Below, in pieces: positions 2,912 to 52,595 of a stretch of 64,000 nt of DNA. The stretch covers positions 9,510 through 73,509 of the forward strand of contig CAKONX010000001.1 in the NCBI GenBank assembly GCA_934098345.1, read 5' to 3'. Within the stretch, counting starts at the first letter, position 1, and each line of letters opens with the position of its first letter. The translations under genes were made by a program, and so were the position numbers. The DNA comes from an uncultured Bacilli bacterium. Its GTDB lineage: Bacteria; Bacillota_I; Bacilli_A; RF39; UBA660. The notes beneath the pieces were generated by a model that saw only the letters and a program-made list of their open reading frames with translations, was not told the DNA's origin and did no database searches.

Positions 2912-3664
2912 TTAGATATTATATAAGTCCCTTACGTTCTTTTCTGTAACTCTTGAAACTTCTTCTAGACTAATATTTTTCAAATTTGCTAAATATTCAG
3001 CAATAGTTTTAATGTACTTAGGCTCATTAGAATATTTTCTAAATGGTTCAGGAGTTAAATATGGAGAATCAGTTTCTAAAATAATTCTATCTAAAGGAAT
3101 TTCTTTAATAATTGTATCTATTTTAGAGTTCTTAAATGTCATTACACCACCAACACCTATATAGAAACCCATATTAATTAGGATATTAGCTGTCTCTAAA
3201 CTACCACTAAAACAGTGAATTACTCCTTCAACTTTAAATTTTTTTAATGAATTGATAGTATCAAGAGTTGCTTCTCTTGAGTGGACTACAACTGGTAACC
3301 CATATTTTTCTGCTAAAGATAATTGATATTCAAATAATTCGATTTGTTCCTTTTTATTTTCTTTTGTATAGTAATAATCAAGCCCAATTTCTCCAATAGC
3401 AACTAATTTTTTATTATTTGAATTATCAACAATGTATTTTTCTAATTTAGTATAATCTTTAACTAAATCTTCTGGATGTAATCCTATACAAACATAAATA
3501 TTTGGATACTTTTCACTTGTTTCAAGTACTTCCTCTATATTTTCAAAACTGGTTGCTGCATTTATTATTTTATAAACCGAATTATTTTTAGCATCTTCTA
3601 TAACTTTACCAAAATCACTAAAATATTCTTTAAAAATATGCGCATGTGTATCTGTAAATTTCAT
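2912..3664 (-). CDS. tatD: TatD-family deoxyribonuclease (YabD)
   Basis: MKFTDTHAHI start, metal-binding His/Glu/Asp pattern, conserved position downstream of metG. Confidence 0.85.
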   Translation of the reverse strand: MKFTDTHAHIFKEYFSDFGKVIEDAKNNSVYKIINAATSFENIEEVLETSEKYPNIYVCIGLHPEDLVKDYTKLEKYIVDNSNNKKLVAIGEIGLDYYYTKENKKEQIELFEYQLSLAEKYGLPVVVHSREATLDTINSLKKFKVEGVIHCFSGSLETANILINMGFYIGVGGVMTFKNSKIDTIIKEIPLDRIILETDSPYLTPEPFRKYSNEPKYIKTIAEYLANLKNISLEEVSRVTEKNVRDLYNI

Positions 3665-3694
3665 ACATTCTCCTCTAAATAATAATAAAAGTGA

Positions 3695-5236
3695 TTACTC
3701 ACTTTTATTATCTATTCTTACAAATAAAATCTCTGGATTATTTAATTTAGTTCCTGATTTAAATTGACCGAACTTTTTAGCTGATTCATAAGATTTTAAA
3801 TCTGTATTAATTTGATTAAATATTTTTTTTGTTGTTTCAGGAATAAATGCTTGAAGATATACTGTACAAATTCTAATAGATTCTATTAAATTATATAAAA
3901 CAGTTTTTAATCTATCTTGTTTTGTTTCATCTTTAGCAAGAGCCCATGGAGTAGTATCATCAATATATTTATTAGTTGCCCTTAAACAATTAAATACTTC
4001 ATCTATTGCATCTGCAATTTTTAAATCATCCATTTTTTTCTTAAAATTAACTGATAAAGCCTCGACTTTTTCTATTAAAGCATTATCGACATCTTCAGTT
4101 ACATTTGTATTTTCAACAATTCCAGCAAAGTATTTATGTGACATAGAAATGGTTCTATTAACTAAATTTCCTAAAATGTTTGCTAAATCTCCATTTATTC
4201 TTTCAACAAGCAAATCTTCTGAGAAAAGTCCATCACTTGCAAATGGTATTTCATGTAAGAAGAAATATCTAATTGCATCTACGCCATATTTGTTAACAAG
4301 ATCATCAGCATATATAATGTTACCTTTACTCTTACTCATTTTTCCATCAGACATGATTAACCAAGGATGTCCAAATACTTTTTCTGGAATTGGTAAATCT
4401 AAACTCATTAAGAAACATGGCCAATAAATTGTGTGAAATCTTACAATATCTTTACCGATTAAATGTAAGTTAGCTGGCCATAACTTTTTAAATTCTTCTG
4501 TTTCATTATCAACATCATACCCGATATTTGTAATATAGTTTGTTAATGCATCTAACCAAACATATACAACATGTTTTGGATCAAAATCTACTGGTATTCC
4601 CCAAGAAAATGAAGTACGTGAAACACATAAATCTTGAAGACCTGGTTTAATAAAATTATTTAACATTTCATTTTTTCGTGCTTCTGGTTGAATAAAATCT
4701 GGATGACTTTCAATATACTCAACTAATTTATCTTGATATTTAGATAATCTGAAAAAATAAGCTTCTTCACATTTTTCTTGAACAACTCTTCCACAGTCAG
4801 GACATTTTCCATCAACTAATTGACTTTCAGTCCAAAAAGATTCACACGGTGTACAATATAATCCCTTATACTCACCTTTATAAATATCACCTTTATCATA
4901 CATTTTTTTAAATATATGTTGAACTACTTCTTCATGATGCTTATCAGTTGTTCTTACAAATTTATCATAAGTAGTGTTCATTAAATCCCATATAGTTTTT
5001 ATTTCACTAGCAACTTTATCAACATATGCTTGTGGTTCAATTCCAGCTTCATTTGCTTTAATTTCTATTTTTTCTCCATGTTCATCTGTTCCTGTTTGAA
5101 AATAAACATCGTATCCTTCTAATCTTTTATTTCTTGCAATTGCATCTGCTAAAACAATTTCATATGTGTTTCCAATATGAGGTTTAGCTGAAGTATATGC
5201 AATTGCTGTACTAATATAATATTTTTCTTTTTCCAT
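3695..5236 (-). CDS. metG: methionyl-tRNA synthetase (short form)
   Basis: Class I aaRS HIGH-type motif (KPHIGN), KMSKSKGN motif, CxxC zinc knuckle; start placed at MEKEK with AGGAGA 9 nt upstream. Confidence 0.9.
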   Translation of the reverse strand: MEKEKYYISTAIAYTSAKPHIGNTYEIVLADAIARNKRLEGYDVYFQTGTDEHGEKIEIKANEAGIEPQAYVDKVASEIKTIWDLMNTTYDKFVRTTDKHHEEVVQHIFKKMYDKGDIYKGEYKGLYCTPCESFWTESQLVDGKCPDCGRVVQEKCEEAYFFRLSKYQDKLVEYIESHPDFIQPEARKNEMLNNFIKPGLQDLCVSRTSFSWGIPVDFDPKHVVYVWLDALTNYITNIGYDVDNETEEFKKLWPANLHLIGKDIVRFHTIYWPCFLMSLDLPIPEKVFGHPWLIMSDGKMSKSKGNIIYADDLVNKYGVDAIRYFFLHEIPFASDGLFSEDLLVERINGDLANILGNLVNRTISMSHKYFAGIVENTNVTEDVDNALIEKVEALSVNFKKKMDDLKIADAIDEVFNCLRATNKYIDDTTPWALAKDETKQDRLKTVLYNLIESIRICTVYLQAFIPETTKKIFNQINTDLKSYESAKKFGQFKSGTKLNNPEILFVRIDNKSE

Positions 5237-5359
5237 TTTTATCATTCTCCTTATAAATTTTATTCTATATTATTAATTCATAGTATATTAACACATCCGT
5301 TTAAATATCCTTAAATTAATAATAGTAATACTTTTTTCTATTAACAAAATAATCACCAC

Positions 5360-5590
5360 CAATAAAAAAACATTCATAATATAGGAACGAACTAATCCGT
5401 GGTACCATCCTATTTTATGAATGTATTCATACACTTTATATCTTAACGCGATTAAAACGATTTAAACTCCAGAGCCATTCGATTATTTTACTAACTTATC
5501 TGCTTTCACCTAACCAGATTCTCTAAAAAAGCCTTCAAATAACTTCTTTCCTTCATTGCTTAACGAACTTAATATATCATGTATAATAAT
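5360..5590 (-). promoter_or_regulatory. T-box riboswitch leader of metG with intrinsic terminator (terminator about 5364..5423)
   Basis: Minus strand reads cattcataa-aataGGATGGTACCACGGattag-...-ttatgaatg-TTTTTTT; GGATGGTACCACGG matches T-box consensus GGGTGGTACCGCGG within a terminator hairpin, typical of Firmicute aaRS leaders. Confidence 0.45.
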
Positions 5591-5600
5591 TTTATTCAAG

Positions 5601-8600
5601 TTATTTATCTATCATATTTACAATTTCATCTAATAATTTTACTTCATAATATATAAAATGTTTTTCTAAATTTACTTTTGGTAAAGTAATAAATATTTTT
5701 TTCATCTTATAAGAAAATCTAAATTTTGGATTAATATTATATGCAAGTAAGAATAATTTATCTCCCTCTATTTTATTAGAAACATCTTCATTTAATTCTA
5801 ATTCAATAGAAGCATCTGTTTGTTTAACTCTAGTAATATTAAGCTTATTTGCTAATTTTTCAAACCATTCTTCATACATATATATTTCCATTTTTTCATC
5901 AATTGTACCAAATCTGTCTTCAATTTCTTGTTTAGCTTTTAATAAAGTATCTTCATCTTTGATTTCATTAATGATTTTATGAATTTCAATTTTAATATCT
6001 TCTTCTTTAACATAGTTGTCATCTATATGATTTGCAACTTCTATTAATGGATTTTTATCATCTTCTTCAATAACTTCTTCACCATTAAGCCTTTTTATTT
6101 CATCTTGAACCATTTGAGTATATAATTCAAGACCAACAGAATCAACAAATCCAGCCTGTTCACTTCCAAGTAAATCACCTGCTCCACGAATAGATAAATC
6201 CCTCATAGCAATTTTATAACCAGAACCAAGTTCTGTAAAATCTTTTATAGATTGAAGCCTTTTTTTAGCTGTTTCTGTTAATATTCTTGATGGTTTATAC
6301 ATTAAATAAGCATATGCAATTTTATCACTTCTTCCAACTCTTCCTCTAAGTTGATATAGTTGTGATAATCCAAAATTGTCTGCATCTATTATAATTAAAG
6401 TATTTACATTTGGAATATCAATTCCAGTTTCAATTATAGTTGTACATAAAAGAATATCATATTTATAATCAATATAATCACTTACAATATTTTCAAGCTC
6501 ATTTTTATCCATTTGACCATGTGCAATTGCAATTCTTGCTTCAGGTACAAGCTTCTTTATCTTAGTTTCTTCATCAACTATACTTTGAACTTTATTATAA
6601 AGAATAAATATTTGCCCATTTCTAGACATTTCTTTATATATTGCATCTTTAATTAATACATCATTTTCTTCTAAGACATAGGTTTGAACTGGATAACGAT
6701 TAACTGGAGCCGTATCAATTATAGATAAATCTCTTAATCCACTCATAGCCATTTTTAATGTTCTTGGTATAGGTGTTGCTGACAAAGTTAAAACATTTAT
6801 ATTATTTTTTAACTCTTTAATTTTTTCTTTATGAGTTACCCCAAATCTTTGTTCCTCATCAATAACAAGTAATCCTAAATTTTTATAATCGATTTTATCA
6901 TTTAGAAGTTTATGTGTTCCAAAAACTATATCAATAGTTCCTTCTTTTAAACCTTTAATTACCCGATTTGTTTCTTTAACTGATACAAATCTATTAAGTA
7001 AAGCAATGTTAACAGGATAATTTTTAAATCTTTCAAGAGCATTTAAATATTGTTGTCTAGATAACAGCGTTGTTGGACATAAATAAGCAACTTGGTGTCC
7101 GTTCATAACCGTTTTAAACATACCTCTAAATGCCACTTCAGTTTTACCAAAACCAACATCACCACATAAAAGTCTATCCATTGGCACCGGTGAATCTAGA
7201 TCATGTTTTAATTCTTTTATACATTTTTCTTGATCAGATGTTGCGGTATATTCAAAATAGGAATCAAATACCTCTTCATCTGGATAATCTTTATAAGCAT
7301 CCCCTTTGATACTGTTTCTAGCTGCATAAAGTTTTATTAACTCATCAGAAATATCTTTGATTTTAGCTTTAACTTTCATTTTAGTTTTAGCCCAGTTAGT
7401 TGAATTTAAAGAATTTATTTTAGGTTGAACACCATCTGCATCTGAAAATTTATATATAGTATTTATTTTTTCAACTGGAATGTATACTTTATCATTACCT
7501 GCATAGTTAATTAAAATATAATCTCTCATCATTCCATTTTTAGTAAGTGCTTTTATTCCACCATAAATTCCTATACCATTACTTTGATGAACTACATAAT
7601 CTCCCACTTTCAAATCATCAAAACTCTTTATTTTTCTACCTAATTTATAAGAATTTTTATAAGTATTAATTACTTTTACATCATCTATATCATACTCACT
7701 TATTATTGAATAATTATTTATAATGAATCCTTCATTTATCTTTTTCTTTATTATGTTTATTTCACCAGGGACGATTGAACCAATATTAACACGTTCAAAT
7801 AAAGATTCAATAGAATTAATTTGTCTATCATTACTTAAATAAATAATTAAAGTATTTTTTTTACAATTAGAATTTACATAATCTTTTAAAGAATCATAGT
7901 TACCCTTAAATTTAATCATAGGTTTTGAATTATAAGATAAACTATCTGAATAATTATTAACAGTTTCGATTCTTATAAAATTATCAACCATTATTTCATC
8001 ATAATTATACATATATTTAATATCTTCATTTTTTGATTCATTATATTCTTTTATATCAATAAGTATTTTTTCATAACCATTTAATATTTGATTTTCATCA
8101 ACAAAGAAAGTAAATGGATTATTCATGTATTCATAAAGCGAATTATGTTCATCAGTTGATATTTCTGAAAATGGCATTAATTTATAACTAGATACTTCAT
8201 TTATTGATAACTGAGTTTCTTCATTAAAGAATCTAATTGAATCTATTTCATCTCCAAAAAATTCTAATCTTATTGGATGTTCACTTTCAATTGGAAAAAT
8301 ATCAATTATATATCCACGCACAGCATATTCTCCAGTTGAAGTAACTAAAGAATCACGATTATATCCTAAAATATTAAGGGTATTTAAAAGTTCTTCTCTT
8401 TCATAAGTATTACCTTTTACTAAGTTTAGTTCATATTTGCTTGATTCAGATTTTGTTGGTAAAAATCTTAAATATCCCATTAAGTTTGTAACAACAATAC
8501 ATTTCTCATTTTTAAGTCTTTCTAAGGTTTCTAATCTTCTAACTTTTAAATCTGGTGATATAGCTAGAGCTACTGATGCTAAAAAATCATCCATCGGAAA

Positions 8601-14830: not shown

Positions 14831-14850
14831 GTTTCCTCCATATTTATATA

Positions 14851-14930
14851 TAAAAAAAGCACACACAATTAGAGGTTATTATGGCTGCTGTATTCCTACT
14901 CTGACCAGGTTCTAACATAATTGTTGTGCA
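14851..14930 (-). ncRNA. ffs: small (4.5S-type) signal recognition particle RNA
   Basis: Minus strand: GCACAACAAUUAUGUUAGAACCUGGUCAGAGUAGGAAUACAGCAGCCAUAAUAACCUCUAAUUGUGUGUGC + U7; long imperfect hairpin with domain IV-like CCUGGUCAG...GGAA.ACAGCAGCC resembling CCAGGUCAGG..GGAAGCAGCC; sits next to tadA/dnaX as scr does in B. subtilis. Confidence 0.5.
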
Positions 14931-15048
14931 AGTTAATTATAGCAGATTATGAATTGTTAATCAATACATTTTAACCAATTTACAAATATTTAAAATTTGT
15001 TGTAACTAGTGTTGCAGATTTTAATTATTTGCTTATATAATTATTTTA

Positions 15049-15066
15049 ATGTTTCACGTGAAACAT
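15049..15066. promoter_or_regulatory. parS site 1
   Basis: ATGTTTCACGTGAAACAT. Confidence 0.85.
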
Positions 15067-15139
15067 CAAGATGAAAACCGCTTTTTAATATTTTTAAAAT
15101 ATATAACGATTTATCAATTAGTTTATTAATTATAATTCA

Positions 15140-15157
15140 ATGTTTCACGTGAAACAT
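15140..15157. promoter_or_regulatory. parS site 2 (within 22-bp palindrome CAATG...CATTG)
   Basis: ATGTTTCACGTGAAACAT. Confidence 0.85.
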
Positions 15158-15250
15158 TGAGCTTATATATTTTTTCATAATCAGTATTTTAATAACAAAA
15201 TTTATTATTATCATTATTTTTATTGTCTTAATTCAAGTTATTTCTTTTTA

Positions 15251-15268
15251 ATGTTTCACGTGAAACAT
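15251..15268. promoter_or_regulatory. parS site 3 (within 24-bp palindrome)
   Basis: ATGTTTCACGTGAAACAT. Confidence 0.85.
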
Positions 15269-15391
15269 TAAAAAATAATTATATGTTTAATTAATTTAGT
15301 TAATAATTGATAAATACTTATATTTTATTAAAAAATTATTTTAAAAACGAGTAAAATATATAAATTTTAATATTTTTTTATATATATTACT

Positions 15392-15409
15392 ATGTTTCAC
15401 GTGAAACAT
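15392..15409. promoter_or_regulatory. parS site 4 (within palindrome ACTATG...CATAGT)
   Basis: ATGTTTCACGTGAAACAT. Confidence 0.85.
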
Positions 15410-15498
15410 AGTAATATTATTCAGATTCAGTTAAAAATACATTACTTATAATTATTTATAAGTATTTATAATTAGTTTCTATTTATTTTTAAATTTTA

Positions 15499-15516
15499 AT
15501 GTTTCACGTGAAACAT
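15499..15516. promoter_or_regulatory. parS site 5 (within 28-bp palindrome TTTTAATG...CATTAAAA)
   Basis: ATGTTTCACGTGAAACAT. Confidence 0.85.
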
Positions 15517-15599
15517 TAAAATCTTTATAATTTTATTAATACATATTTATATTTTAAATTATTAGCATATAAAATATTTTGTTTTATAATTTTAACTAT

Positions 15600-15617
15600 A
15601 TGTTTCACGTGAAACAT
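15600..15617. promoter_or_regulatory. parS site 6 (within palindrome CTATATG...CATATAG)
   Basis: ATGTTTCACGTGAAACAT. Confidence 0.85.
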
Positions 15618-15696
15618 ATAGCTCTATTTTTTATTAAAATAGAGTGACATTTTTTAAATAACTTTTTTTATTAAAAAAATATAAAATAATTTACTA

Positions 15697-15714
15697 ATGT
15701 TTCACGTGAAACAT
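15697..15714. promoter_or_regulatory. parS site 7
   Basis: ATGTTTCACGTGAAACAT. Confidence 0.85.
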
Positions 15715-15817
15715 TGGATGATTATATAATAACTGTTTTGTCAATGCACAAATTTTAAATTTTTGCGCTGTTAATAATTTCAGATTTTAAATATTTGTCT
15801 TTCAAAAAAAGAAGAAA

Positions 15818-23186: not shown

Positions 23187-24539
23187 TTAATTCATGATTT
23201 TATCTTTTATTTTATTAATTTCTTCTTTTAATTCATCATCTTGTTTTAAACTATCAGCTATCTTATCACAAGCATGAATTACAGTAGCATGATCTCTATT
23301 AAATTCCAAACCAATTTTATCAAGTGTTTCTTCCGTTGTCATTTTACATAAGTAAATGGCTACTTGCCTTGCATGATTTATGATTGCCGTTCTTTTCTTA
23401 CTTTTTAATGATTCAACTGTTAAATCATAATATTCAGCAACAGCTTTCTGTATTTTAGTAACATTGTTAGTTATATATACTGAAGAACCTATATAATCTT
23501 TTAACGCATCTTTTGCAAATTCCAGATTAATTTCTTTAGGTGAATACATTGCTGTTACTGCATATAACCTATTTATAGCACCTTCTAAGTGTCTAACATC
23601 GTTTTCACAGTTGTTTGCAATATATTCCAGTACTTCAGGAGCAATCATTTTACTTACTTCATGTCCTGCAATTTTATTTTTTACAATTTTTAAACGAAGT
23701 TCATAATCTGGAGGCATTATATTAACTGTAAGTCCCCAAGTAAACCTTGTTCTAAGACGTTCTTCCAGTACTTTTAAGTCATCTGGACTTCTATCTGATG
23801 ATATTATTATCTGTTTATTTAAACTATATAACTCATTAAATGTGTTAAAAAATTCATCCTGAGTCTTATTAGCACCACCTAAAAATTGAATATCATCAAT
23901 TATTAATACATCTACACTTCGATATTTTTCTTTAAAATGAGCAATTAAATCTAAGTTGTTATCATCTTTTCTATTAATTTGAGTAAAATCTGTTATAAAT
24001 CTCTCACTTGTAACATATAAAACCGATTTATTTGAGTTATCAGTAACAAAATTACCAATAGCATGCATTAAATGTGTCTTCCCTAACCCGCTTTTTCCAT
24101 ATATAAATAAGGGATTATAAAGTTTTCCAGGTTGTTCAGCAACTGATAAGCCAACTGTTTGAGCTAATCTATTAGAATTACCAACAACAAAATTATCAAA
24201 TGTATAATTTGGATTCAAATTACTACAATTATTATTCTTAAATTTAGGCATATCCATTATAGGTTCTTCTATAATGACCTCTTCTTCTTTTATATCTTCT
24301 TTGCAAATAACTTCAAAATCATATTCTTCATTACTTACTTCTTTTAAAACATCTTTAATAATGTTTTCATAATAATTATTTATATAATCTTTTTTATATT
24401 TATTAGCAGCACATATAGTTAAAGTATGATTATCCAAACTAATTATATCCGCATCCTTAAACCAAGTGTTAAATGAAATATTATTTAACTTACTGCTAAG
24501 AACATTTAAAAAAGTATTCCAAAAACCTTCCTTATCCAT
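23187..24539 (-). CDS. dnaA: chromosomal replication initiator DnaA
   Basis: 450 aa; AAA+ Walker A GKSGLGKTHLMHAIGN, Walker B LIIDDIQF, C-terminal DnaA-box-binding HTH (KRTAIINHARQVAIYLCK). Confidence 0.95.
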   Translation of the reverse strand: MDKEGFWNTFLNVLSSKLNNISFNTWFKDADIISLDNHTLTICAANKYKKDYINNYYENIIKDVLKEVSNEEYDFEVICKEDIKEEEVIIEEPIMDMPKFKNNNCSNLNPNYTFDNFVVGNSNRLAQTVGLSVAEQPGKLYNPLFIYGKSGLGKTHLMHAIGNFVTDNSNKSVLYVTSERFITDFTQINRKDDNNLDLIAHFKEKYRSVDVLIIDDIQFLGGANKTQDEFFNTFNELYSLNKQIIISSDRSPDDLKVLEERLRTRFTWGLTVNIMPPDYELRLKIVKNKIAGHEVSKMIAPEVLEYIANNCENDVRHLEGAINRLYAVTAMYSPKEINLEFAKDALKDYIGSSVYITNNVTKIQKAVAEYYDLTVESLKSKKRTAIINHARQVAIYLCKMTTEETLDKIGLEFNRDHATVIHACDKIADSLKQDDELKEEINKIKDKIMN

Positions 24540-43596: not shown

Positions 43597-43673
43597 CTAC
43601 ATATACTAATCGATTTGCCTATTTTTGTCAACACTTTTTTGACTTTTATTTGAAATTTTTATGGAGGAATATA

Positions 43674-45658
43674 TGGAACTAGAAAACGTAAAAGGAATTG
43701 GTCCAAAAACAAAAGAATTATTAAATAAAATTAATATATATTCTGTAGATGAACTAGTTAGGTATTATCCATATCGTTATAATATTTATAGTCCAGAAAA
43801 CATACTTAATCATGAAGATGAACAAATATGTATTACTGGAATGATAGAAGGAGTACCAAAACTTAGTTACATTAAAAGAAACTTAAATAAAATTAGTTTT
43901 ACATTTCTAACAAATAATATAAGATGCAATGTTGTTATATTTAATCGTGCTTTTATAAATAGATATTTAACAGTTGGTAAATATATTACATTAGTTGGAA
44001 AATATAAAAAGGATAAAAACCAATTTATAGCAAGTGATATTAAACTTAAACCTATATATAAAACTGAAGTAGAACCTGTATATCATTTAGTTAATGGTCT
44101 TAAAACTTCAACATTAGAAAGTAGTATTAAATCTATATTAGAAAGCAATATTGAAATAAATGAAATAGTACCTGATTTTATAAATGATATGTATGGATTT
44201 ATTAAAAGTAAAGATGCTATAAAAGAAATACATTTTCCAACAAGTTTAGAAGAAACAAAAAAAGCTAATTTAAAATTAAAATATGAAGAGTTATTTGAAT
44301 TTTTGTTTAAAATAAATATTATAAAATATAGAAATCAATTGTTTAATGATTATGTAATTAAACACGTTGATGAATCTATGATTGATTCAATAAAGAAACA
44401 AATACCTTATAGTTTAACAGGAGATCAAGAAACAACTCTAAATGAAATTATAGATGACTTTAATAGTTTTAAAAGAATGAATAGACTTATAATGGGAGAT
44501 GTTGGATGTGGTAAAACTATAGTTGCTTTTATTGCTGTTATGTTAAATTATAAATGTGGTTATCAGAGTGCAATACTTGCTCCAACTGAAGTATTAGCAA
44601 GTCAACATTATGAAAACTTTATAAGTTTATTTCCCGATATTAGAGTTGAATTTCTTGTAGGAAGTAAAACTAAAAAGCAAAAAGAAGTAATCAAAGAAAA
44701 ATTAAAAAATGGAGAAGTAGATGTTTTAATTGGAACACATGCAATGCTTGAAGATGATGTTGAATTTAAAAATATTGGTTTAGTAGTAACAGATGAACAA
44801 CATCGTTTTGGAGTTAATCAAAGAAAGAGTTTACAAAATAAAGGTGAATTTGTTGATGTTCTTTATTTATCAGCAACACCCATACCAAGAACATACGCTT
44901 TAACAATTTATGGTGATATGGATATTTCCATTATTAAAGAGAAACCAGCTGGAAGAAAAGATATAGTTACTAAATTATTAAAGTTTAGTGAAATGGAAAC
45001 TGTTTTAAAAACAATTAAAGAAGAAATTGATAATCATCATCAAGTTTATGTCGTAGCTCCTTTAATAGAGGAAAGTGAATCTGATTTAAATGATGTAAAT
45101 ACTATATATGAACTTATTAGTAAAAATATAAGAGATATAAAAATAGATATATTACATGGTAAGATGAAAAATGTTGATAAAGACAGAGTTATCAACAATT
45201 TTAAAGAAGGAAAATTAGATTTAATTATATCTACAACTGTAATAGAAGTAGGAGTAGATGTCAAAAATGCAACATTAATGGTTATATTTAATGCAGAACG
45301 TTTTGGACTTGCAACTCTACACCAATTAAGAGGAAGAGTTGGAAGAAATAGCTTAGATTCAAAATGTATTTTAATAAGTGATCAAGAAAAAGAAAGATTA
45401 CATGTATTGGAAGAAAGCAATGATGGATTCTATGTTTCTGAAATGGACTTTAAAATGCGTGGAAGTGGAGATTTATTTGGAATAAGACAAAGTGGAGATA
45501 TGATATTTAAAATTGCAGATTTAAAGAAAGATTATAAAATACTTTTACAATGTAAAAAGGATGTTGATAAATTTATTCTAGATAATATTGAAAATAGTTT
45601 TAGAAATTACTCGTATTATAATGCTATATTAGAAAGCTTAATGAATAATAACGATTAG
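43674..45658 (+). CDS. recG: ATP-dependent DNA helicase RecG
   Basis: wedge domain, Walker A GDVGCGKT, DEQHRFG, SATPIPRT, C-terminal helicase motifs; start at MELENV after GGAGG. Confidence 0.9.
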
Positions 45659-45666
45659 GAGGATTT

Positions 45667-46104
45667 ATGAAAAAATTTGAAATATTAATAGATACATATG
45701 AAGGTAAAATAGATGAATTCTTATTAAGCCTTGATGGAATAAAAGAAGTTCATATAAAAGAAGATAAATGGAAAACTGACATTAATATATTATATAACGA
45801 TAAAAATATATCAATTATTGATATAAAAGATAAACTTATAGAATATGTAGATGCAGTAAACGTACCTTCTATACTATCATTTAACAAATTTGAAGAAAAA
45901 AATATTAATAAAGAAATATTTTTAGGTGATGGGTGTTGTGAATATTGTATGAATGGAACAATAGAAGAACTACTGGAAATAGATGGAATAAATTCAGCAT
46001 CATATGAAGATGGTAGAGACTTTTTCAATGTAACATTAAAATTAAGTTATAATCCAGATAAAATAAACAATGAAAAATTAGAACAAATAATAAAAGAACT
46101 ATAA
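45667..46104 (+). CDS. hypothetical protein (CCEYC motif)
   Basis: 145 aa, coupled 8 nt after recG. Confidence 0.45.
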   Translation: MKKFEILIDTYEGKIDEFLLSLDGIKEVHIKEDKWKTDINILYNDKNISIIDIKDKLIEYVDAVNVPSILSFNKFEEKNINKEIFLGDGCCEYCMNGTIEELLEIDGINSASYEDGRDFFNVTLKLSYNPDKINNEKLEQIIKEL

Positions 46105-46171
46105 GTGTCAATATTTAAAATTTGTATTCAAATATATTGACAGAATTTTAAAATTTGTATATCATTATATG

Positions 46172-46276
46172 TAGCATGATAGACTTCCTATCATGCCCGA
46201 TATATCTAACGATTATTAACAATGTTAGTATATCAACCAAAACCCCCTGGCCATCCTTTATGGATGGCGTTTTTTT
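46172..46276 (+). ncRNA. candidate C-rich small RNA (sRNA-2), paralog-like to sRNA-1; 3' hairpin also serves as terminator of upstream operon
   Basis: TTGACA(46137)-17nt-TATCAT(46160), then AUGUAGCAUGAUAG-acuuc-CUAUCAUGC ... CAACCAAAACCCCCUG GCCAUCC-uuuau-GGAUGGC-GU7. Confidence 0.35.
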
Positions 46277-46395
46277 ATGCATATAAGTCTCATTATATAT
46301 CTGACATTCTTTCATAATTAGAAAAAGATATATTTATATAGCGTATAATCGCGATTTATATGATATAATTAATAATGTATACAGGAGGTTTATAT

Positions 46396-47508
46396 ATGGC
46401 ATATAGAAAGTCTTTTATTAAGTGGGCAGGAGGAAAAGAAAAAGAGCTTCCAATTATATTAAATAATTTACCTAAAAAAATTGACAGATATATAGAACCT
46501 TTTGTTGGCGGAGGAGCAGTATATTTTAATATAAATAAATCAAAGTCAATTATCAATGATAAATCAACTGAATTAATACTTTTATATAAAATGATTAAAT
46601 CTAAAAATAAATTTTTTGTTAAAAGCATTAACGAAATAAATAATAATTGGTTAGACCTTGAAAATATTGTTATTAGTAATTCGTCAGAACTTATAAATAT
46701 ATATGACGATTATAAAAATGATAAGAATACTTTAGATGAATTAATTGATCTATTTATGTCTAATCATAAAAAAGAAATAGCAAAATTGTTGAAAGATGAT
46801 ATTGATATAAATTTATATAATTTTGAAATTGAAATTAAGAAAAATTTAAAATCAAAATTAAGCAGAATGCTTAAAATAGAGAACATAAGGAATGAGATGT
46901 CTGAAGAAGATATAATGAGTAATATTGAAACCGCATTTAAAAGTGCATACTATATGTATTTTAGATATTTATACAACAATAGAAAAAAGTTAAAACTAAG
47001 TGATCCATTTTTTGCAGCCGTATTTTATTTTATTAGAGATTATTGTTATGCGTCTATGTTTAGATATAATTCCATTGGTGAATTCAATGTCCCTTATGGT
47101 GGCATAAGCTATAATAGAAAAAACTTTAAGAAGAAAATTAAATATATTACATCGGAAGACTTAAGTGAATACATGAAAGAAACAGAAATTTATAATATGG
47201 ATTTTGAAGACTTTTGTAAATCTATAGAACTAAATGAAAATGACTTTATGTTTTTAGATCCTCCTTATGATACAGAGTTTTCTACTTATGCAAAAAATGA
47301 TTTTGATAAAGCTGATCAAATAAGATTAGCTAACTTTCTGAAAAATACCAAAGCAAAATTCATGTTAATAATAAAAAATACTGATTTTATTTATAATCTA
47401 TACAAAGATAAAGGATTTAATATTAACTCATTTGACAAAAAGTATTTAGTAAGTTTCATGAATAGAAATGATAAAAATGTTGAACATTTGATAATTACAA
47501 ACTATTAA
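46396..47508 (+). CDS. Dam-like (alpha-class) DNA N6-adenine methyltransferase
   Basis: Motif [11 protein letters not shown], motif IV FLDPPYD; D12-class order; extended -10 TGATATAAT upstream and AGGAGG RBS. Confidence 0.85.
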
Positions 47509-47525
47509 TAATTAGGAGGTAAACG

Positions 47526-48680
47526 ATGAATGATAAAAACTCTATAAAAAGTACAATTGTTATAGCAATAAATAATATACTATCTTCGAGGAAAGGATCC
47601 AAATATGCTGACATTCAAGAAATTTATAAAGAGGTAGCTTTATTAAAAGGTGTTGAAATAAGTGAATCTTTAAAAGCGCAAGTACGTGGCAGACTACAAG
47701 AACATTGCTCACAGTATAAAAACTATACTGGACCAGATGATTTGTTTGAAACGAAGGCAATTAATTCTGGATGTTGGAAAAATAAAATTACAGGTGAGAA
47801 GAGTATAAGAAAGCATATTATATCATTAGTTAACGAGTTTCCAGGAATCGATATTACTCAATTAAAAGAATATATATTAACATCAATGAAGGATGAACTT
47901 ACTGAGGCCGATAAAATAGAAAGCAAAACGAGACCTGGAGAAATGAAGGTAGAACAAATAATAAGAAATCTCGTTTCTCATAGAGATAGTTATAAAGATG
48001 TTATTGAATTTAAAAAAGAAAATGAAATCACAAGACTTTATCCTAAACATGTAGAGGCAGGAGATGATGAAGATACTTTAGTTTCAATAGATGATGAAGT
48101 AATTGAAAAGGTATTAAATAAAGAAGAAGAAAAGCCAATTATTGATCAAGAAGAAACTAAACTATTAACATTAGTTGAAATACCTAATAAAAAAAGTAAA
48201 AATAATCTTTCAAAAAAAACATATATTAGAAAAAGTGATTTTGAAAGAAAACTACAAGAATATAATAAAAAAATGGATAACGGATATGTTGCAGAGGGAT
48301 TAGCATATCAACATGAAATAGATAAACTAGTCTCAATGGGTAGAAAAGATCTGGCTGAAAAAGTAAGATGGGTATCCAGAGATGATGGCGATGGATATGG
48401 TTATGATATTCAATCTTTTGATACTATTAATGGTGAAGATAAGATAATATACATAGAAGTCAAAAGTACATCAGATAGTATTAGTTCGGATTTTGAAATG
48501 TCGGCAAATGAAATTAAATTTGCTGAGGAACATATAGATGAATTTAAAATTTATAGAGTATATAAGAATAAAAATGTTGCAAATTTTTATATAATAGAAT
48601 CTGGAAACGACTTAAAAAATGATTTTGAGATTGAACCGACGAAATTTAAAGTTTCTATTAAACCAATAGAGAAAGAGTGA
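47526..48680 (+). CDS. DUF3883 (NO VEIN C-terminal-like) PD-(D/E)xK nuclease-fold protein; putative restriction/effector nuclease
   Basis: C-terminal ...DGDGYGYDIQSFD...IIYIEVKSTSD... (D...EVK signature) followed by YRVYK; co-transcribed 18 nt after the MTase (AGGAGG RBS). Confidence 0.55.
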   Translation: MNDKNSIKSTIVIAINNILSSRKGSKYADIQEIYKEVALLKGVEISESLKAQVRGRLQEHCSQYKNYTGPDDLFETKAINSGCWKNKITGEKSIRKHIISLVNEFPGIDITQLKEYILTSMKDELTEADKIESKTRPGEMKVEQIIRNLVSHRDSYKDVIEFKKENEITRLYPKHVEAGDDEDTLVSIDDEVIEKVLNKEEEKPIIDQEETKLLTLVEIPNKKSKNNLSKKTYIRKSDFERKLQEYNKKMDNGYVAEGLAYQHEIDKLVSMGRKDLAEKVRWVSRDDGDGYGYDIQSFDTINGEDKIIYIEVKSTSDSISSDFEMSANEIKFAEEHIDEFKIYRVYKNKNVANFYIIESGNDLKNDFEIEPTKFKVSIKPIEKE

Positions 48681-48697
48681 GTAATCGCTCTTTTTTA
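48674..48697 (+). terminator. intrinsic terminator after MTase-nuclease operon
   Basis: AGAGTG-agtaat-CGCTCT + T6. Confidence 0.5.
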
Positions 48698-48751: not shown

Positions 48752-48780
48752 TTGACAATATATTGTCCATATAGTAATAT
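48752..48780 (+). promoter_or_regulatory. promoter of GHKL operon with overlapping 18-bp palindromic operator
   Basis: TTGACA-17-TAATAT; TTGACAATA|TATTGTCCA inverted repeat overlaps the -35. Confidence 0.5.
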
Positions 48781-48813
48781 ATATGCTATATTTAAAACGA
48801 AAGAGGTATAATT

Positions 48814-49035
48814 ATGGAAAATGAAAAAGTAAAAGAGGAAAGATTTGTTAGAATCGCTGAAAAAAGAACAAACGTTATTTTAGATACACTTAGGTTGCTA
48901 GGAAATTGTTCTAATACTAATAATTACAAATATAGTGATCAACAAGTAAAAAAAATATTTAGTGCAATAGAGCAAGAATTAAAAAATACAAAGATTAAAT
49001 TTGATAAAAAGGAAGAAAAGTTTACTTTAAAATAA
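48814..49035 (+). CDS. small basic protein, first gene of GHKL operon (possible regulator)
   Basis: 73 aa, AGAGG RBS, ends 12 nt before the GHKL gene. Confidence 0.4.
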   Translation: MENEKVKEERFVRIAEKRTNVILDTLRLLGNCSNTNNYKYSDQQVKKIFSAIEQELKNTKIKFDKKEEKFTLK

Positions 49036-49047
49036 GGCGGTATAAAT

Positions 49048-51000
49048 ATGACTGAAATGAAATGGGAATTTCCTTATACTAATGGAGGAGAAGGAGACGG
49101 ATTTAATGATTCTGGTATTCAATCTTTTAAAGATGATGCGTATACATCTTTAGCAAGAGAAATATGTCAGAATTCATTAGATGCTGTTGATGAAGGAAAG
49201 AAAGCAATTGTTGAGTTTAAAAGCTTCGATCTTGAGAGAGAAAAATTTCCCGATTATGATAGTTTTATAAATGTAATAACTCACGAAGTTGAATTTTCCA
49301 AAAAAAATTATAAAAATGTAGATACACCATTAAAATTTTATTCAGAAGCATTAAAAACATTAAAGTTAGATAAAATAAAGTGTTTAAGAATTAGTGATTT
49401 TAATACATGCGGTTTAACAGGAAGTGACAAAAAAATAAATTCAAACTGGTCCAATTTGGTAAAGAATAAAGGATTCAACGATAAACCATTAGATGCAGTT
49501 GGAGCTTTTGGAATTGGAAAAAATGCAACATTTGCTTGTTCAAAACTGAATACTGTATTTTATAGTACTATAAGTAATGATGGGTTGAAAGCCATTCAAG
49601 GTGTTGCCAGATTATCTACATACGAAACCGAAGATGGTAATATGACACAAGGTACAGGTTTTTGTGGAAAAATTGTTATTAACAATAATGGTGTTACTAA
49701 TCTTATGCATATAGAAGATTATTATAGTTTGGATCATGATTTTATTAGAAATGACAATGACTATGGTACAGATATATTTGTTCTTGGTTTCCATGATGAT
49801 AGTAATGATAAAATTAGTGACCTTGGTGATAATTGGGCAGTTTTAATAACCGCTTCACTAATAGACAACTTTCTTTTATCAATTGTAGAAGGCAAGTTAG
49901 AAATTAGAATTAATGATATTATTTTAAACAGTGAAACTATAGAAGACATTTTTAATGATATTAATTCATCTAGGCCTGATTTGTTTAATGAGTATACTGC
50001 TGAATATTTTAATGTTTTACTAGGAGATGATACAGAAAATACTGTTAATGATAAAATATCTATGTTTGAACCTGATGATGTTGAATTAATTTTAGCTTTT
50101 AATCCAAATTATCATAACAAGGTATCGATTAATAGACATACTGGAATGAAGTTGTTTGATAAAGACAGATTAGGAAATCAAGCTTTTTACAGTGGTATAC
50201 TTGTGTTAAGGGGCAAGAAAGTTAATGCTTACTTTAAAACAATGGAAAACCCAAATCACGATGGTTGGAGTTATAAAAGAGTTGGAGCTCCACAAGATGC
50301 GTATAAAATGTATTCTAAGTTATTTGACTTCGTTAGAACCAAAATAAGAGAATTTGCAATAGAAAATACTCCAGATTCTTTGGATGCACAAGGTATTGGT
50401 GAATATCTTGCAGATGAGTTTGATATAGGAAATAATAATTCTGAAAAGGAAGATATAAATAACGATATAGTAGAAGAAATTGAAGTAAAAGAAAAGAAAC
50501 CAATTTCTTTAACTCAAATTACAGTAGATGATCCAGAAGCTAATGATCCTTTACAAGTTTTAGGAAAAGATAGTGAGGACGGTGAACTTGAAGGAACTAT
50601 ACCTAGAGGGAATTTAAATGAGACTGATGATGGAAGTGGTACAAAAATTGAAGGGGACAAAGGAAATGGCGGTTTTTACTTTGATTCTCTTGGTAATGTA
50701 AGAGCCAATAAAATTAGAAGTTATAATACTGGAGAACAATATAACCTAATATTTTCTGTACCTACGAATGTGGATGAATTGGTAATTGATGTTCAGATAG
50801 CCGGTGAACAATCAAATTATAAACCGGTAATCAAATTCGCTAATATGAAAGGTGTAATAATAAGTAATAATTTAGAAATAAAAGATAATCAAATTAAATT
50901 AAAAAAGGTTAAAGCAAATAATAATTATAACGTTAGTTTTAAGTTGAGCGATGATAAAAAGTGGTCATTGGAGGTAAATTTATATGAGAATAAAAAGTAA
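49048..51000 (+). CDS. GHKL (Bergerat-fold) ATPase, paraMORC/HATPase_c_3-like, 650 aa
   Basis: N-box REICQNSLDA (E...N..DA), G-box NKGFNDKPLDAVGAFGIGKNATFA, GT-lid QGTGFCGK; C-terminal about 350 aa with no recognised domain. Confidence 0.6.
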   Translation: MTEMKWEFPYTNGGEGDGFNDSGIQSFKDDAYTSLAREICQNSLDAVDEGKKAIVEFKSFDLEREKFPDYDSFINVITHEVEFSKKNYKNVDTPLKFYSEALKTLKLDKIKCLRISDFNTCGLTGSDKKINSNWSNLVKNKGFNDKPLDAVGAFGIGKNATFACSKLNTVFYSTISNDGLKAIQGVARLSTYETEDGNMTQGTGFCGKIVINNNGVTNLMHIEDYYSLDHDFIRNDNDYGTDIFVLGFHDDSNDKISDLGDNWAVLITASLIDNFLLSIVEGKLEIRINDIILNSETIEDIFNDINSSRPDLFNEYTAEYFNVLLGDDTENTVNDKISMFEPDDVELILAFNPNYHNKVSINRHTGMKLFDKDRLGNQAFYSGILVLRGKKVNAYFKTMENPNHDGWSYKRVGAPQDAYKMYSKLFDFVRTKIREFAIENTPDSLDAQGIGEYLADEFDIGNNNSEKEDINNDIVEEIEVKEKKPISLTQITVDDPEANDPLQVLGKDSEDGELEGTIPRGNLNETDDGSGTKIEGDKGNGGFYFDSLGNVRANKIRSYNTGEQYNLIFSVPTNVDELVIDVQIAGEQSNYKPVIKFANMKGVIISNNLEIKDNQIKLKKVKANNNYNVSFKLSDDKKWSLEVNLYENKK

Positions 51001-51841
51001 TAGGTTATTTACTTATCCAGTATTAACATCAATGAATGATGACTATATTGAAAGTAGTTTTACAACATCAATTAAAGTATTGAAAAGGGTAAGAACATTA
51101 CAAATATCAATAGATTGTGAGATAAAGAATGATGAATTACAAAGCTTACTTGATCAAGATAAGGCAGAGGTAATATGTCATATAGAATGTTCTAAAACTA
51201 AATTGAGATATATTCAAAAACTAAACCTTGGTCATAATGAATTTGAAATTGAAAGTAAACTAATAAACTTAAATATAGAATTAGTAACATTTGTAATAGC
51301 AAAAGAAAATATTGAAGGTTTTAAATCTACTAAATTTAATAGAGATTACAATAATGCTACATTTAAAATTGACAGAGGACAAATTCTTGCTATTGCAAGT
51401 CAAGTTGATATTCCAATAATAAAGGATATTTATGATCTATCAGATGTTCCGTCAATTATAACAATTGTACCTTCAGATATAAAATATATGATGGTAAATA
51501 TGGACGATCATAAAATTATTATTAAACTTCCTAAGGATGATTTTAATAATTACGCATCTTTAGGAAAATCTATTGGGTCACATACACCAATATTGCACTC
51601 TATGGTTATTGTTCCAGCTTTAACTCATGTAATAGATGAATTAATAAAGTGTAACGATGATTTTGAGCAATATTCGAATTATAGATGGTTTAAGGTATTA
51701 AAAGCAAAAGTTGAAACGCTAAAATATGAATTTTCGAGTGATTCAATGTTAAGAGTTGGATCATTGCAATTAGTACAAGAAATATTGGAAAATCCTTTAA
51801 GCCTAGCTTTAGACAAACTTCCAAGAATGAAGGTGGAGTAG
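50984..51841 (+). CDS. hypothetical protein, translationally coupled to GHKL ATPase (17-nt overlap)
   Basis: 285 aa ORF, no recognisable motifs. Confidence 0.5.
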   Translation: MRIKSNRLFTYPVLTSMNDDYIESSFTTSIKVLKRVRTLQISIDCEIKNDELQSLLDQDKAEVICHIECSKTKLRYIQKLNLGHNEFEIESKLINLNIELVTFVIAKENIEGFKSTKFNRDYNNATFKIDRGQILAIASQVDIPIIKDIYDLSDVPSIITIVPSDIKYMMVNMDDHKIIIKLPKDDFNNYASLGKSIGSHTPILHSMVIVPALTHVIDELIKCNDDFEQYSNYRWFKVLKAKVETLKYEFSSDSMLRVGSLQLVQEILENPLSLALDKLPRMKVE

Positions 51842-51842
51842 T

Positions 51843-52595
51843 ATGAAATTAAAATTTTTAAAAACTAATTCTTTATCAATTTTAAAAGAAAACATTAAAG
51901 ATAATATTAAACATTATTCGGATGCTAATTCAAATTGGATAAAGAACTCAACAAATGATGAAGTTAATTATATTGAAAGTAAATTAGATGTTCCTGATTT
52001 CGAATTGATAATATCAAATACTCCTGAAAAAGATGATTTTTTAAATATAAAATTACTATATTCAAATCTGATTGAATTAACCGATAGCCAAGCCGGAGAT
52101 GAAAGATTATGGGCTGGATTGTGTCATAATCAATTCTGGAATTATATGATTAATAGATGGCCAGTAGCAAAGGCTAAAGATGAAGTAAAATTTATTAAAA
52201 AAAATTACTTCTTTGCTCATGGTGAAAAAAGATCTTTAATGACAAATGGACTTGCAAGGTTATGGTGGATTGGCAGATTAACATACGATAAAGATAATCC
52301 TAATAATAATCCATTTGAATTAACTGAATATTTATGTAAGGATTTAAATGGTAGAGGTTTTCCTCTGTTTGGTAGTAACTTTTCAAATAATGACAAAATA
52401 TTAAAAATATTTCTATATACTTTAAAAAATTATGAAGAAAGTAATAACATTAAGTTAGATAGAAATACAGAATTCTTAGAGATGATAAAATATGTTAATA
52501 AGCTTAGTGGAAAGATTTTAATAGATTATTTATCAAATAACGAATTAAGAAAACTTATACTTGATGAAGTAACAAGAATTGTATCTTTAAGATAA
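51843..52595 (+). CDS. hypothetical protein, last gene of GHKL operon (1-nt gap)
   Basis: 250 aa; Trp-rich conserved-looking block DERLWAGLCHNQFWNYMINRWP...LARLWWIGRL. Confidence 0.5.
   Translation: MKLKFLKTNSLSILKENIKDNIKHYSDANSNWIKNSTNDEVNYIESKLDVPDFELIISNTPEKDDFLNIKLLYSNLIELTDSQAGDERLWAGLCHNQFWNYMINRWPVAKAKDEVKFIKKNYFFAHGEKRSLMTNGLARLWWIGRLTYDKDNPNNNPFELTEYLCKDLNGRGFPLFGSNFSNNDKILKIFLYTLKNYEESNNIKLDRNTEFLEMIKYVNKLSGKILIDYLSNNELRKLILDEVTRIVSLR

Follow-up and report, generated by a model that had tools for sequence, protein, structure and literature searches.

Does a Dam-like adenine methyltransferase gene that is followed by a gene for a DUF3883 protein encode a restriction-modification (R-M) system? 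This question is raised by a 64,000-nucleotide stretch of DNA from an uncultured Bacilli bacterium (contig CAKONX010000001.1, positions 9,510 to 73,509; hereafter, the window), in which a gene for a 370-residue methyltransferase (MT; 46396-47508, + strand) precedes a gene for a modular, 384-residue putative restriction endonuclease (NUC; 47526-48680, + strand). A preliminary description of the sequence had proposed that the two form an R-M pair with a DUF3883 endonuclease. The conserved linkage of the genes, the occupation of the NUC position by known restriction endonucleases in related loci, the exchange of the cleavage domain beside a constant methylase, and the depletion of GATC all favor this proposal, which is well supported by comparative genomics, though unproven. 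We assign a probability of roughly 60% to the reading that MT and NUC constitute a two-gene, Type II-like R-M module whose nuclease comes from an uncharacterized, rare, and modular family. It is not a new kind of system.

The methyltransferase and putative nuclease genes

Pfam, TIGR00571, and sequence motifs identify MT as a long-form D12/alpha-class (Dam-family) N6-adenine DNA methyltransferase. It matches Pfam MethyltransfD12 (PF02086) with an E-value of 2.5e-36, TIGR00571 "dam" with 172.7 bits (cut-off 114.85), and the PADLOC model MTase_II with 1e-61. S-adenosylmethionine-binding and catalytic motifs are present in the Dam-family order (FVGGG, residues 36-40; DPPY, residues 288-291), which bears out the D12/alpha-class FxGxG...DPPY arrangement in the preliminary description. 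The in-frame open reading frame (ORF) spans 46375-47508. Since a ribosome-binding site (RBS), AGGAGG (46383-46388, + strand), precedes the ATG at 46396, and a 99%-identical database protein is also 370 residues long, this ATG is the likely start. The closest relatives with solved structures are DpnM (2e-27) and E. coli Dam (6e-20), neither of which has the insertion of ~90 residues found in MT. MT belongs to a very large family (at least 5483 clusters at E ≤ 1e-30), so most family members are not paired with NUC.

The NUC ORF lies 17 nucleotides 3′ of the MT stop codon, not 18 as first described, and has the AGGAGG RBS that had been noted (47514-47519, + strand). Its C-terminal part (residues ~236-384; 48231-48677, + strand) is a NOV_C/DUF3883 nuclease domain of the PD-(D/E)xK type, as proposed, with residues 257-357 matching the Pfam family (PF13020) above the gathering score at 7.1e-20. 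E257, E264, D294, E311, and K313 do not vary in an alignment of 26 family members, whose identity to the window protein is 40-58%. The D...EVK signature is thus intact (D294...E311-x-K313), and MT is adjoined by a separate endonuclease gene with an intact metal-dependent nuclease motif, as in Type II R-M systems. Much of the N-terminal half of NUC is also invariant in this alignment. No match to a known restriction endonuclease family with a defined partner was found for the 384-residue protein.

An AlphaFold (AF2) model of NUC (mean predicted local distance difference test score, 76) comprises a winged helix at residues 7-86, a second winged helix at residues 91-173, a charged, low-confidence linker of ~60 residues, and a long helix followed by an alpha/beta core. 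The core has a restriction-enzyme/Hjc-like fold, and the top match in the Protein Data Bank (PDB), as determined using Foldseek, was R.SwaI (E 5e-3). For the N-terminal half, neither Pfam (at E-values up to 10) nor single-sequence and profile searches of the PDB yielded a match; the winged helices (47544-48044, + strand), which we propose to be a DNA recognition module, were identified through structure comparison only. The Pfam matches, again at E-values up to 10 for the N terminus, include no known modification-reader domain (PUA, DUF3427, or SRA). A search of 5.8 billion proteins identified ~45 clusters of full-length relatives (374-392 residues, 40-98% identical to NUC). Searches of viral contigs revealed distant DUF3883 domains but no full-length member of the NUC family.

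The DUF3883 domain itself is not new to restriction biology, and the earlier statement that DUF3883 proteins are not characterized restriction enzymes was too strong. The domain was placed in the PD-(D/E)xK superfamily in 2012 (PMC3424549), is the catalytic domain of characterized Type IV enzymes, the modification-dependent YenY4I and the McaZI group (PMC6765204), and appears in a survey of archaeal R-M systems as a presumed Type IIR group (PMC10609329). NUC also matches the PADLOC models PDC-S36 (5.6e-33) and PD-T4-1 (3.6e-14), and the C-terminal end of the TmtA models. However, the PDC-S36 and PD-T4-1 matches cover the nuclease core only, as NUC residues 198-377 align with profile positions 103-278 of 280, and a short-form relative of NUC described below covers positions 117-257. 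We therefore rejected NUC as a PDC-S36 orthologue. As there is no full-length match, and as the gene is linked to MT rather than standing alone, NUC does not belong to these single-gene systems.

The signals around the two genes indicate a two-gene operon. The extended -10 element reported earlier, TGATATAAT, is present at 46361-46369 (+ strand), as read from the sequence, and most of the homologous loci whose upstream sequences were compared also have TGnTATAAT 5′ of their MT gene. As a good -35 element is absent, a simple -35/-10 scan did not list TGATATAAT. At the 3′ end, a terminator-like hairpin followed by a run of T (48669-48696, + strand) closes the operon, consistent with the preliminary description; its stem is weak, with 12 pairs including G-T and only three G-C. 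Scanning the region identified 2 terminator-like sites, compared with 0.4 expected in shuffled sequences. A 10-base-pair (bp) palindrome in the promoter spacer, AATCGCGATT (46347-46356; no strand), is also where it had been reported, but its suggested role as a control element finds no support, since it is neither conserved nor unusual. None of the 15 other loci examined has it 5′ of the MT gene, and the window contains 19 10-bp palindromes with at least 4 G/C, compared with 13.7 ± 3.8 in shuffles. We therefore rejected AATCGCGATT as an operator; it is probably a chance occurrence.

Linkage, partner exchange, and probable recognition site

We scanned genomic and metagenomic stretches encoding NUC relatives (loci, numbered with the prefix L) with the window proteins. 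Among 12 lineages with long-form NUCs, which are mostly only 40-58% identical, 10 had an MT homologue (69-76% identical) directly 5′ of NUC (the window, L001/2/100, L101, L102, L103, L154/5, L156/7, L158, L162/3, and L164-6), and the MT and NUC genes overlap by 11-23 nucleotides in four of the 10. Since the genes on either side change from lineage to lineage (recG, ftsK-like, integrase, gatCAB, rbfA, and cotJB), MT-NUC was inserted independently. A short form of NUC (262 residues, with one winged helix and DUF3883) has the long-form MT within 1.6 kb in all five of its lineages: L054, the Treponema loci L062/63, L136, and L144, and the Psychrobacter plasmid pA3H9. In L054, from a metagenome-assembled genome (MAG) of Succinivibrionaceae, the short form and MT are adjacent and immediately precede gyrA. 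In the Treponema loci, a HinfI/TdeIII-family restriction endonuclease and a CcrM-like methylase separate them, and on pA3H9 (8.5 kb) the DUF3883 gene follows genes for a TdeIII-family restriction endonuclease and MT. With all forms taken together, MT is adjacent or within 1.6 kb in 15 of 17 lineages, and 3.9 kb away in one more. The pair stands alone between housekeeping genes in L158 (gatCAB and RNase J) and before gyrA in L054. Pairwise identities of MT and NUC are correlated (Mantel r 0.52, p 0.0004). Thus, as for Type II R-M systems, the R and M genes remain linked across genomes.

The position that NUC occupies is used by known restriction enzymes in related loci. All three of the abundant MT homologues that we sampled (71-73% identical to window MT) had a nuclease partner, so MT is not an orphan Dam conserved in relatives without a nuclease, an outcome that would have told against the pairing by the terms of the preliminary description. 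One of them has an AlwI-family restriction endonuclease 18 nucleotides downstream, and two have an abutting HinfI/TdeIII-family restriction endonuclease gene. The same downstream slot holds an AlwI-family enzyme in L003 and L167-170 and a HinfI/TdeIII-family enzyme in L171-176, where the MTs are 70-75% identical to that of the window. The L102 MT, whose partner is NUC, and the L167 MT, whose partner is of the AlwI family, are 90% identical, and in the MT tree, methylases with the three types of partner are intermixed. Since these homologues carry AlwI- or HinfI/TdeIII-family enzymes there, NUC occupies the slot of known restriction enzymes behind practically the same methylase.

A second exchange occurs within the nuclease. 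In a full HMMER scan of 1.84 billion representative proteins, the N-terminal 176 residues of NUC were found in 17 clusters only. One of these proteins, P0306, has both winged helices (36% identical to those of NUC) fused to an HNH nuclease instead of DUF3883, and it sits 24 nucleotides from a long-form MT of 380 residues, which shows 49% identity to window MT along its full length. Thus, the cleavage domain changes from DUF3883 to HNH, but the winged-helix module keeps its association with MT. Such a swap would be predicted for an enzyme in which the winged helices account for recognition, in agreement with the methylase, and cleavage is the only task of the C-terminal domain.

To what site would such recognition be directed? 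Of the palindromic tetramers, GATC shows the strongest depletion in the window, with 90 copies observed and 161 expected (observed/expected [O/E] 0.56, z -5.6), which is the under-representation that the preliminary description had suggested looking for. All pooled sets of loci carrying MT show GATC depletion as well (O/E 0.38-0.72). GANTC is not clearly depleted (O/E 0.76-1.16), and we do not favor it as the target. Residues K9, R124, and P134 of E. coli Dam, which we take to be GATC contacts, align to identical residues in window MT, while Dam L122 is replaced by M. AlwI, which recognizes GGATC, is blocked by Dam methylation, which fits a GATC site. Deducing the site from the partner enzymes gave no result, as the relationship of the AlwI-family partner to N.BspD6I is distant (1e-19) and the HinfI/TdeIII-family partner had no match in the PDB or NCBIfam. 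D12 enzymes with other sites, such as GATG/CATC, are known (PMC12898733). Together, the depletion and the aligned residues make GATC a likely, though unproven, site of MT.

A model that accommodates these data is that MT marks host DNA, most likely at GATC, while NUC, co-transcribed with MT from the extended -10 promoter and translated from its own strong RBS, would be the cognate endonuclease. The tandem winged-helix module would recognize DNA that lacks the methyl mark, and the DUF3883 domain, on its flexible linker of ~60 residues and probably dimeric, would cleave in the presence of Mg2+. Indirect hints that NUC would cut near the site protected by MT, and only when that site is unmethylated, come from the GATC depletion and from the slot shared with known restriction enzymes. 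Such a layout, with recognition and cleavage in separate domains, would be that of Type IIS enzymes such as FokI, in which winged-helix-type recognition is joined to a separate PD-(D/E)xK cleavage domain. The resemblance extends to the exchangeability of the NUC-type cleavage domain in P0306, but NUC has no sequence match to FokI and its top structural match is a different enzyme.

Comparison with other known systems places the pair near classical R-M systems while setting NUC apart. Like DpnII, MboI, and LlaDCHI, the locus combines an alpha-class D12 methylase, for which DpnM is the best PDB match, with an adjoining restriction endonuclease gene in a host depleted of GATC. However, MT has the ~90-residue insertion, NUC is unrelated to the DpnII and MboI nucleases, and the GATC specificity of our pair is deduced rather than known. 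The AlwI- and HinfI/TdeIII-family systems share with it MTs that are 70-90% identical, the same style of promoter and RBS, and the downstream nuclease slot, but NUC is from another, uncharacterized family, and L003 and L164-166 hold NUC in addition to such an enzyme. YenY4I and McaZI resemble NUC in their C-terminal DUF3883 PD-(D/E)xK domain and in their presence in defense islands, often near methyltransferases (PMC6765204). These enzymes use PUA and/or DUF3427 readers and cut modified DNA, whereas NUC, with winged helices in place of a reader domain, is tightly tied to one MT subfamily as its cognate methylase, and thus does not fit their type. PD-T4-1 of E. coli and PDC-S36 share a homologous DUF3883 nuclease core, but these are called as single-gene systems.

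If confirmed, the R-M reading would add to the restriction endonucleases an uncharacterized family (two winged helices and DUF3883, with an HNH sister form) that has a defined methylase partner. It would also illustrate clearly how, in nature, a single conserved methylase can be combined with no fewer than four unrelated types of nuclease in one gene slot, and would mean that some DUF3883 defense proteins are halves of R-M pairs, not stand-alone systems.

The PDC-M33 module and alternative explanations

The MT-NUC operon is followed by PDC-M33, a candidate defense module with a separate promoter (48752-52595, + strand). After the terminator-like hairpin comes a promoter-like site (48752-48780, + strand), and then genes for a 73-residue protein (48814-49035, + strand), M33A (49048-51000, + strand; PADLOC PDC-M33A, 9e-166), M33B (50984-51841, + strand; PADLOC, 8e-81), and M33C/DUF6339 (51843-52595, + strand; PADLOC, 3e-81; DUF6339, 9e-51). 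M33A, M33B, and M33C are thus present in order at 49048-52595, and the PADLOC M33 models that were matched do not include MT or NUC. The predicted structure of M33A matches the ATPases of Hsp90/TRAP1, MORC4, Topo VI-B, and GyrB (E 1e-8 to 1e-5), which identifies it, on the evidence of the model, as a GHKL ATPase of the Hsp90/MORC type. The module always opens with a conserved protein of ~75 residues, for which PADLOC has no model. Neither DUF6339 nor PDC-M33 was mentioned in the literature that we searched.

On plasmids, M33 modules also keep company with methylases. In four of six annotated plasmid contexts (L177, L181, L182, and L183), the gene for the ~75-residue protein is just 3′ of a methylase gene; the methylase genes 5′ of plasmid M33 are hsdS with hsdM, or a C5-methyltransferase gene with vsr. 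The other two contexts have R-M genes within ~4 kb (L178, Sau3AI and dcm; L180, AlwI and two Dam-type methyltransferases), and plasmid M33 is also found beside AlwI and a C5-methyltransferase with vsr. PDC-M33 may depend on methylation. By analogy with these plasmids, where M33 stands beside complete R-M systems, MT and NUC would be the complete R-M system here. The linkage of NUC to PDC-M33 provides a testable lead on how the unstudied M33 relates to DNA methylation.

Several findings weigh against a simple R-M pair. The layout of a winged helix joined to a PD-(D/E)xK domain is also that of Mrr and DpnI, and the partner restriction endonuclease families include enzymes for GGATC, GAGTC, and GANTC, which leaves the proposed specificity of MT tentative. 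Seven GATC sites lie within the MT-NUC operon, with no local avoidance. NUC is adjoined by PDC-M33 in 8 of the 12 long-form lineages, including the window. In one lineage (P0019; L004 and L159-161), NUC is followed by PDC-M33 and no MT is present within 5.9 kb upstream, and NUC is intact in three of the four assemblies. A canonical restriction endonuclease that could itself be the partner of MT accompanies NUC in four or five lineages (AlwI in L003; HinfI/TdeIII-family enzymes in L164-166, the Treponema loci, and pA3H9), and in these NUC would be a second restriction endonuclease or something else, and may have an accessory role. In addition, the only characterized DUF3883 enzymes are modification-dependent (PMC6765204).

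The association with PDC-M33 raises the possibility that MT, NUC, the 73-residue protein, M33A, M33B, and M33C form one methylation-based defense system, in which MT would mark self, a GHKL complex would sense or remodel foreign DNA, and NUC would be the effector, making the system a split form of a GHKL-DUF3883 fusion. The small protein and M33ABC follow NUC in the eight lineages, where NUC identities are 41-55% and M33A identities 37-45%, and the P0019 lineage retains NUC with M33 in the absence of an adjacent MT. Sequence searches gave no nuclease domain in M33A-C, M33A is a GHKL ATPase by structure, the NUC match to the C-terminal end of TmtA fits such a fusion, and plasmid M33 modules regularly come after a methyltransferase gene. 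However, terminator-like and promoter-like sites separate the two units in the window, and the PADLOC definition of M33 comprises three genes. With at least 1845 clusters in the M33A family and ~45 in that of NUC, almost every M33 system is without NUC. L158, L054, and L164-166 have MT-NUC but no M33, M33 is upstream and separated in L162, and the R-M systems beside plasmid M33 are complete and unrelated. Because of the separate signals, the loci with MT-NUC but without M33, the cluster counts, and the unrelated R-M neighbors on plasmids, we consider M33 to be a module in its own right, probably a separate system that is habitually found beside R-M systems and frequently linked to NUC, and we regard a single six-gene system as unlikely. 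A joint reading, that the winged-helix module reads the unmethylated MT site and plugs onto DUF3883 or HNH and that in most genomes MT, NUC, and M33 are coupled in one six-gene, methylation-gated defense system, is a shade more doubtful. The six genes would then be the split prokaryotic counterpart of GHKL-DUF3883 fusions such as Tiamat TmtA. The eukaryotic protein NO VEIN is a GHKL-DUF3883 fusion.

NUC could also owe its place to the clustering of defense genes. It would then be an independent nuclease, either a modification-dependent Type IV enzyme or one of the PD-T4-1/PDC-S36 type, and MT would be an orphan or the partner of another enzyme. The single-gene PADLOC models that NUC matches, the modification dependence of the YenY4I and McaZI group and its frequent proximity to methyltransferases (PMC6765204), and the DUF3883 proteins of similar size that stand alone on enterobacterial resistance plasmids are all consistent with independence. 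Matches to the NUC nuclease domain occur on ~1200 plasmids, mostly enterobacterial, and the first winged helix of NUC is also fused to AIPR with no MT nearby. Yet the PADLOC matches span the nuclease core only, no known modification reader was detected in NUC, and clustering in islands does not predict that one MT subfamily should be adjacent or within 1.6 kb in 15 of 17 lineages, often with overlapping genes. The HNH variant retains the same MT partner, and an enzyme dependent on G6mATC would kill a host with a GATC methylase. An independent nuclease is thus improbable, more so than either form of the six-gene system. Still less probable, in our estimation, is that NUC serves MT as an accessory nuclease in the manner of Vsr, which travels with C5-methylases, acting either in repair or nicking or as a second enzyme for hemimethylated or single-stranded substrates. 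NUC does accompany MT with or without a canonical restriction endonuclease, and vsr stands beside the C5-methyltransferase near plasmid M33 as NUC stands beside MT here. But in L158 and L054 the pair is present without another nuclease, which would leave MT an orphan on a mobile cassette, and the DUF3883 core is a defense nuclease wherever tested. Moreover, we know of no mutagenic lesion arising from N6-methyladenine that would need a dedicated repair nuclease. The two-gene R-M module therefore remains our favored explanation.

Genomic setting and additional observations

The preliminary description missed the context of the pair, which comprises a variable hotspot 3′ of recG, PDC-M33 alongside, and canonical restriction endonucleases that co-exist with NUC in several genomes. 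The window has a G+C content of 25%. Since dnaA (23187-24539), dnaN, gyrB, and gyrA lie at 15.8-24.5 kb, the locus is near the replication origin. Upstream of MT-NUC are recG (43661-45658), a 145-residue ORF, and a strong terminator (46250-46268) between this ORF and the MT promoter. L170 carries, at the chromosomal site that corresponds to window 43661-48680, recG, a 176-residue ORF, an MT that is 73% identical to window MT, and an AlwI-family restriction endonuclease (3157-6054). The site 3′ of recG is thus a variable defense hotspot, in which L170 has MT and AlwI where the window has MT, NUC, and M33. MT-NUC is most likely a mobile cassette in this hotspot, ~22 kb from dnaA.

Between the 145-residue ORF and the MT promoter, the window contains an element (46137-46278) that may be a small RNA gene. 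It has a near-consensus promoter-like site (TTGACA, 17 nucleotides, TATCAT; 11 of 12 matches), and the following ~105 nucleotides have a very stable fold (-34.8 kcal/mol, z -7.2), with the terminator at 46250-46268 at their end. The candidate RNA matched no Rfam family. Parts of the element recur in L148, L151, and the start of L159, 5′ of other DUF3883 genes.

Three observations concern other NUC-related genes. In L004, from a Mycoplasma MAG, NUC (5940-7083) is split into three ORFs by two frameshifting indels, while in L159-L161, other assemblies of the same strain (99.8% identical), it is intact. Since the indels may be assembly errors, we did not use the broken gene as evidence, and we dropped the idea that loss of MT leads to decay of the nuclease because three sister assemblies have an intact NUC. 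In this lineage, a 404-residue ORF lies upstream of NUC where MT would stand. L184-L186 (6001-10279) contain, downstream of a 999-residue AAA_11/AAA_12 helicase, three closely packed genes that encode an HNH nuclease with tandem winged helices, a D12 methylase of the long form, and a GmrSD Type IV enzyme. On the E. coli plasmids L189 and L190, a DUF3883 protein of ~378 residues (WP_000080861, WP_014837927) travels with the aac(3)-IId resistance region; no methylase was found near the DUF3883 gene in these two regions.

Outside the defense region, seven copies of a perfect 18-bp palindrome, ATGTTTCACGTGAAACAT, occur 91-141 bp apart at 15049-15725, in the AT-rich gap between the signal recognition particle RNA gene (14845-14938) and gyrA. 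Their core, TGTTTCACGTGAAACA, matches what we take to be the Bacillus parS consensus, TGTTNCACGTGAAACA. With this array, centromere-like sites would be clustered unusually tightly in the vicinity of oriC.

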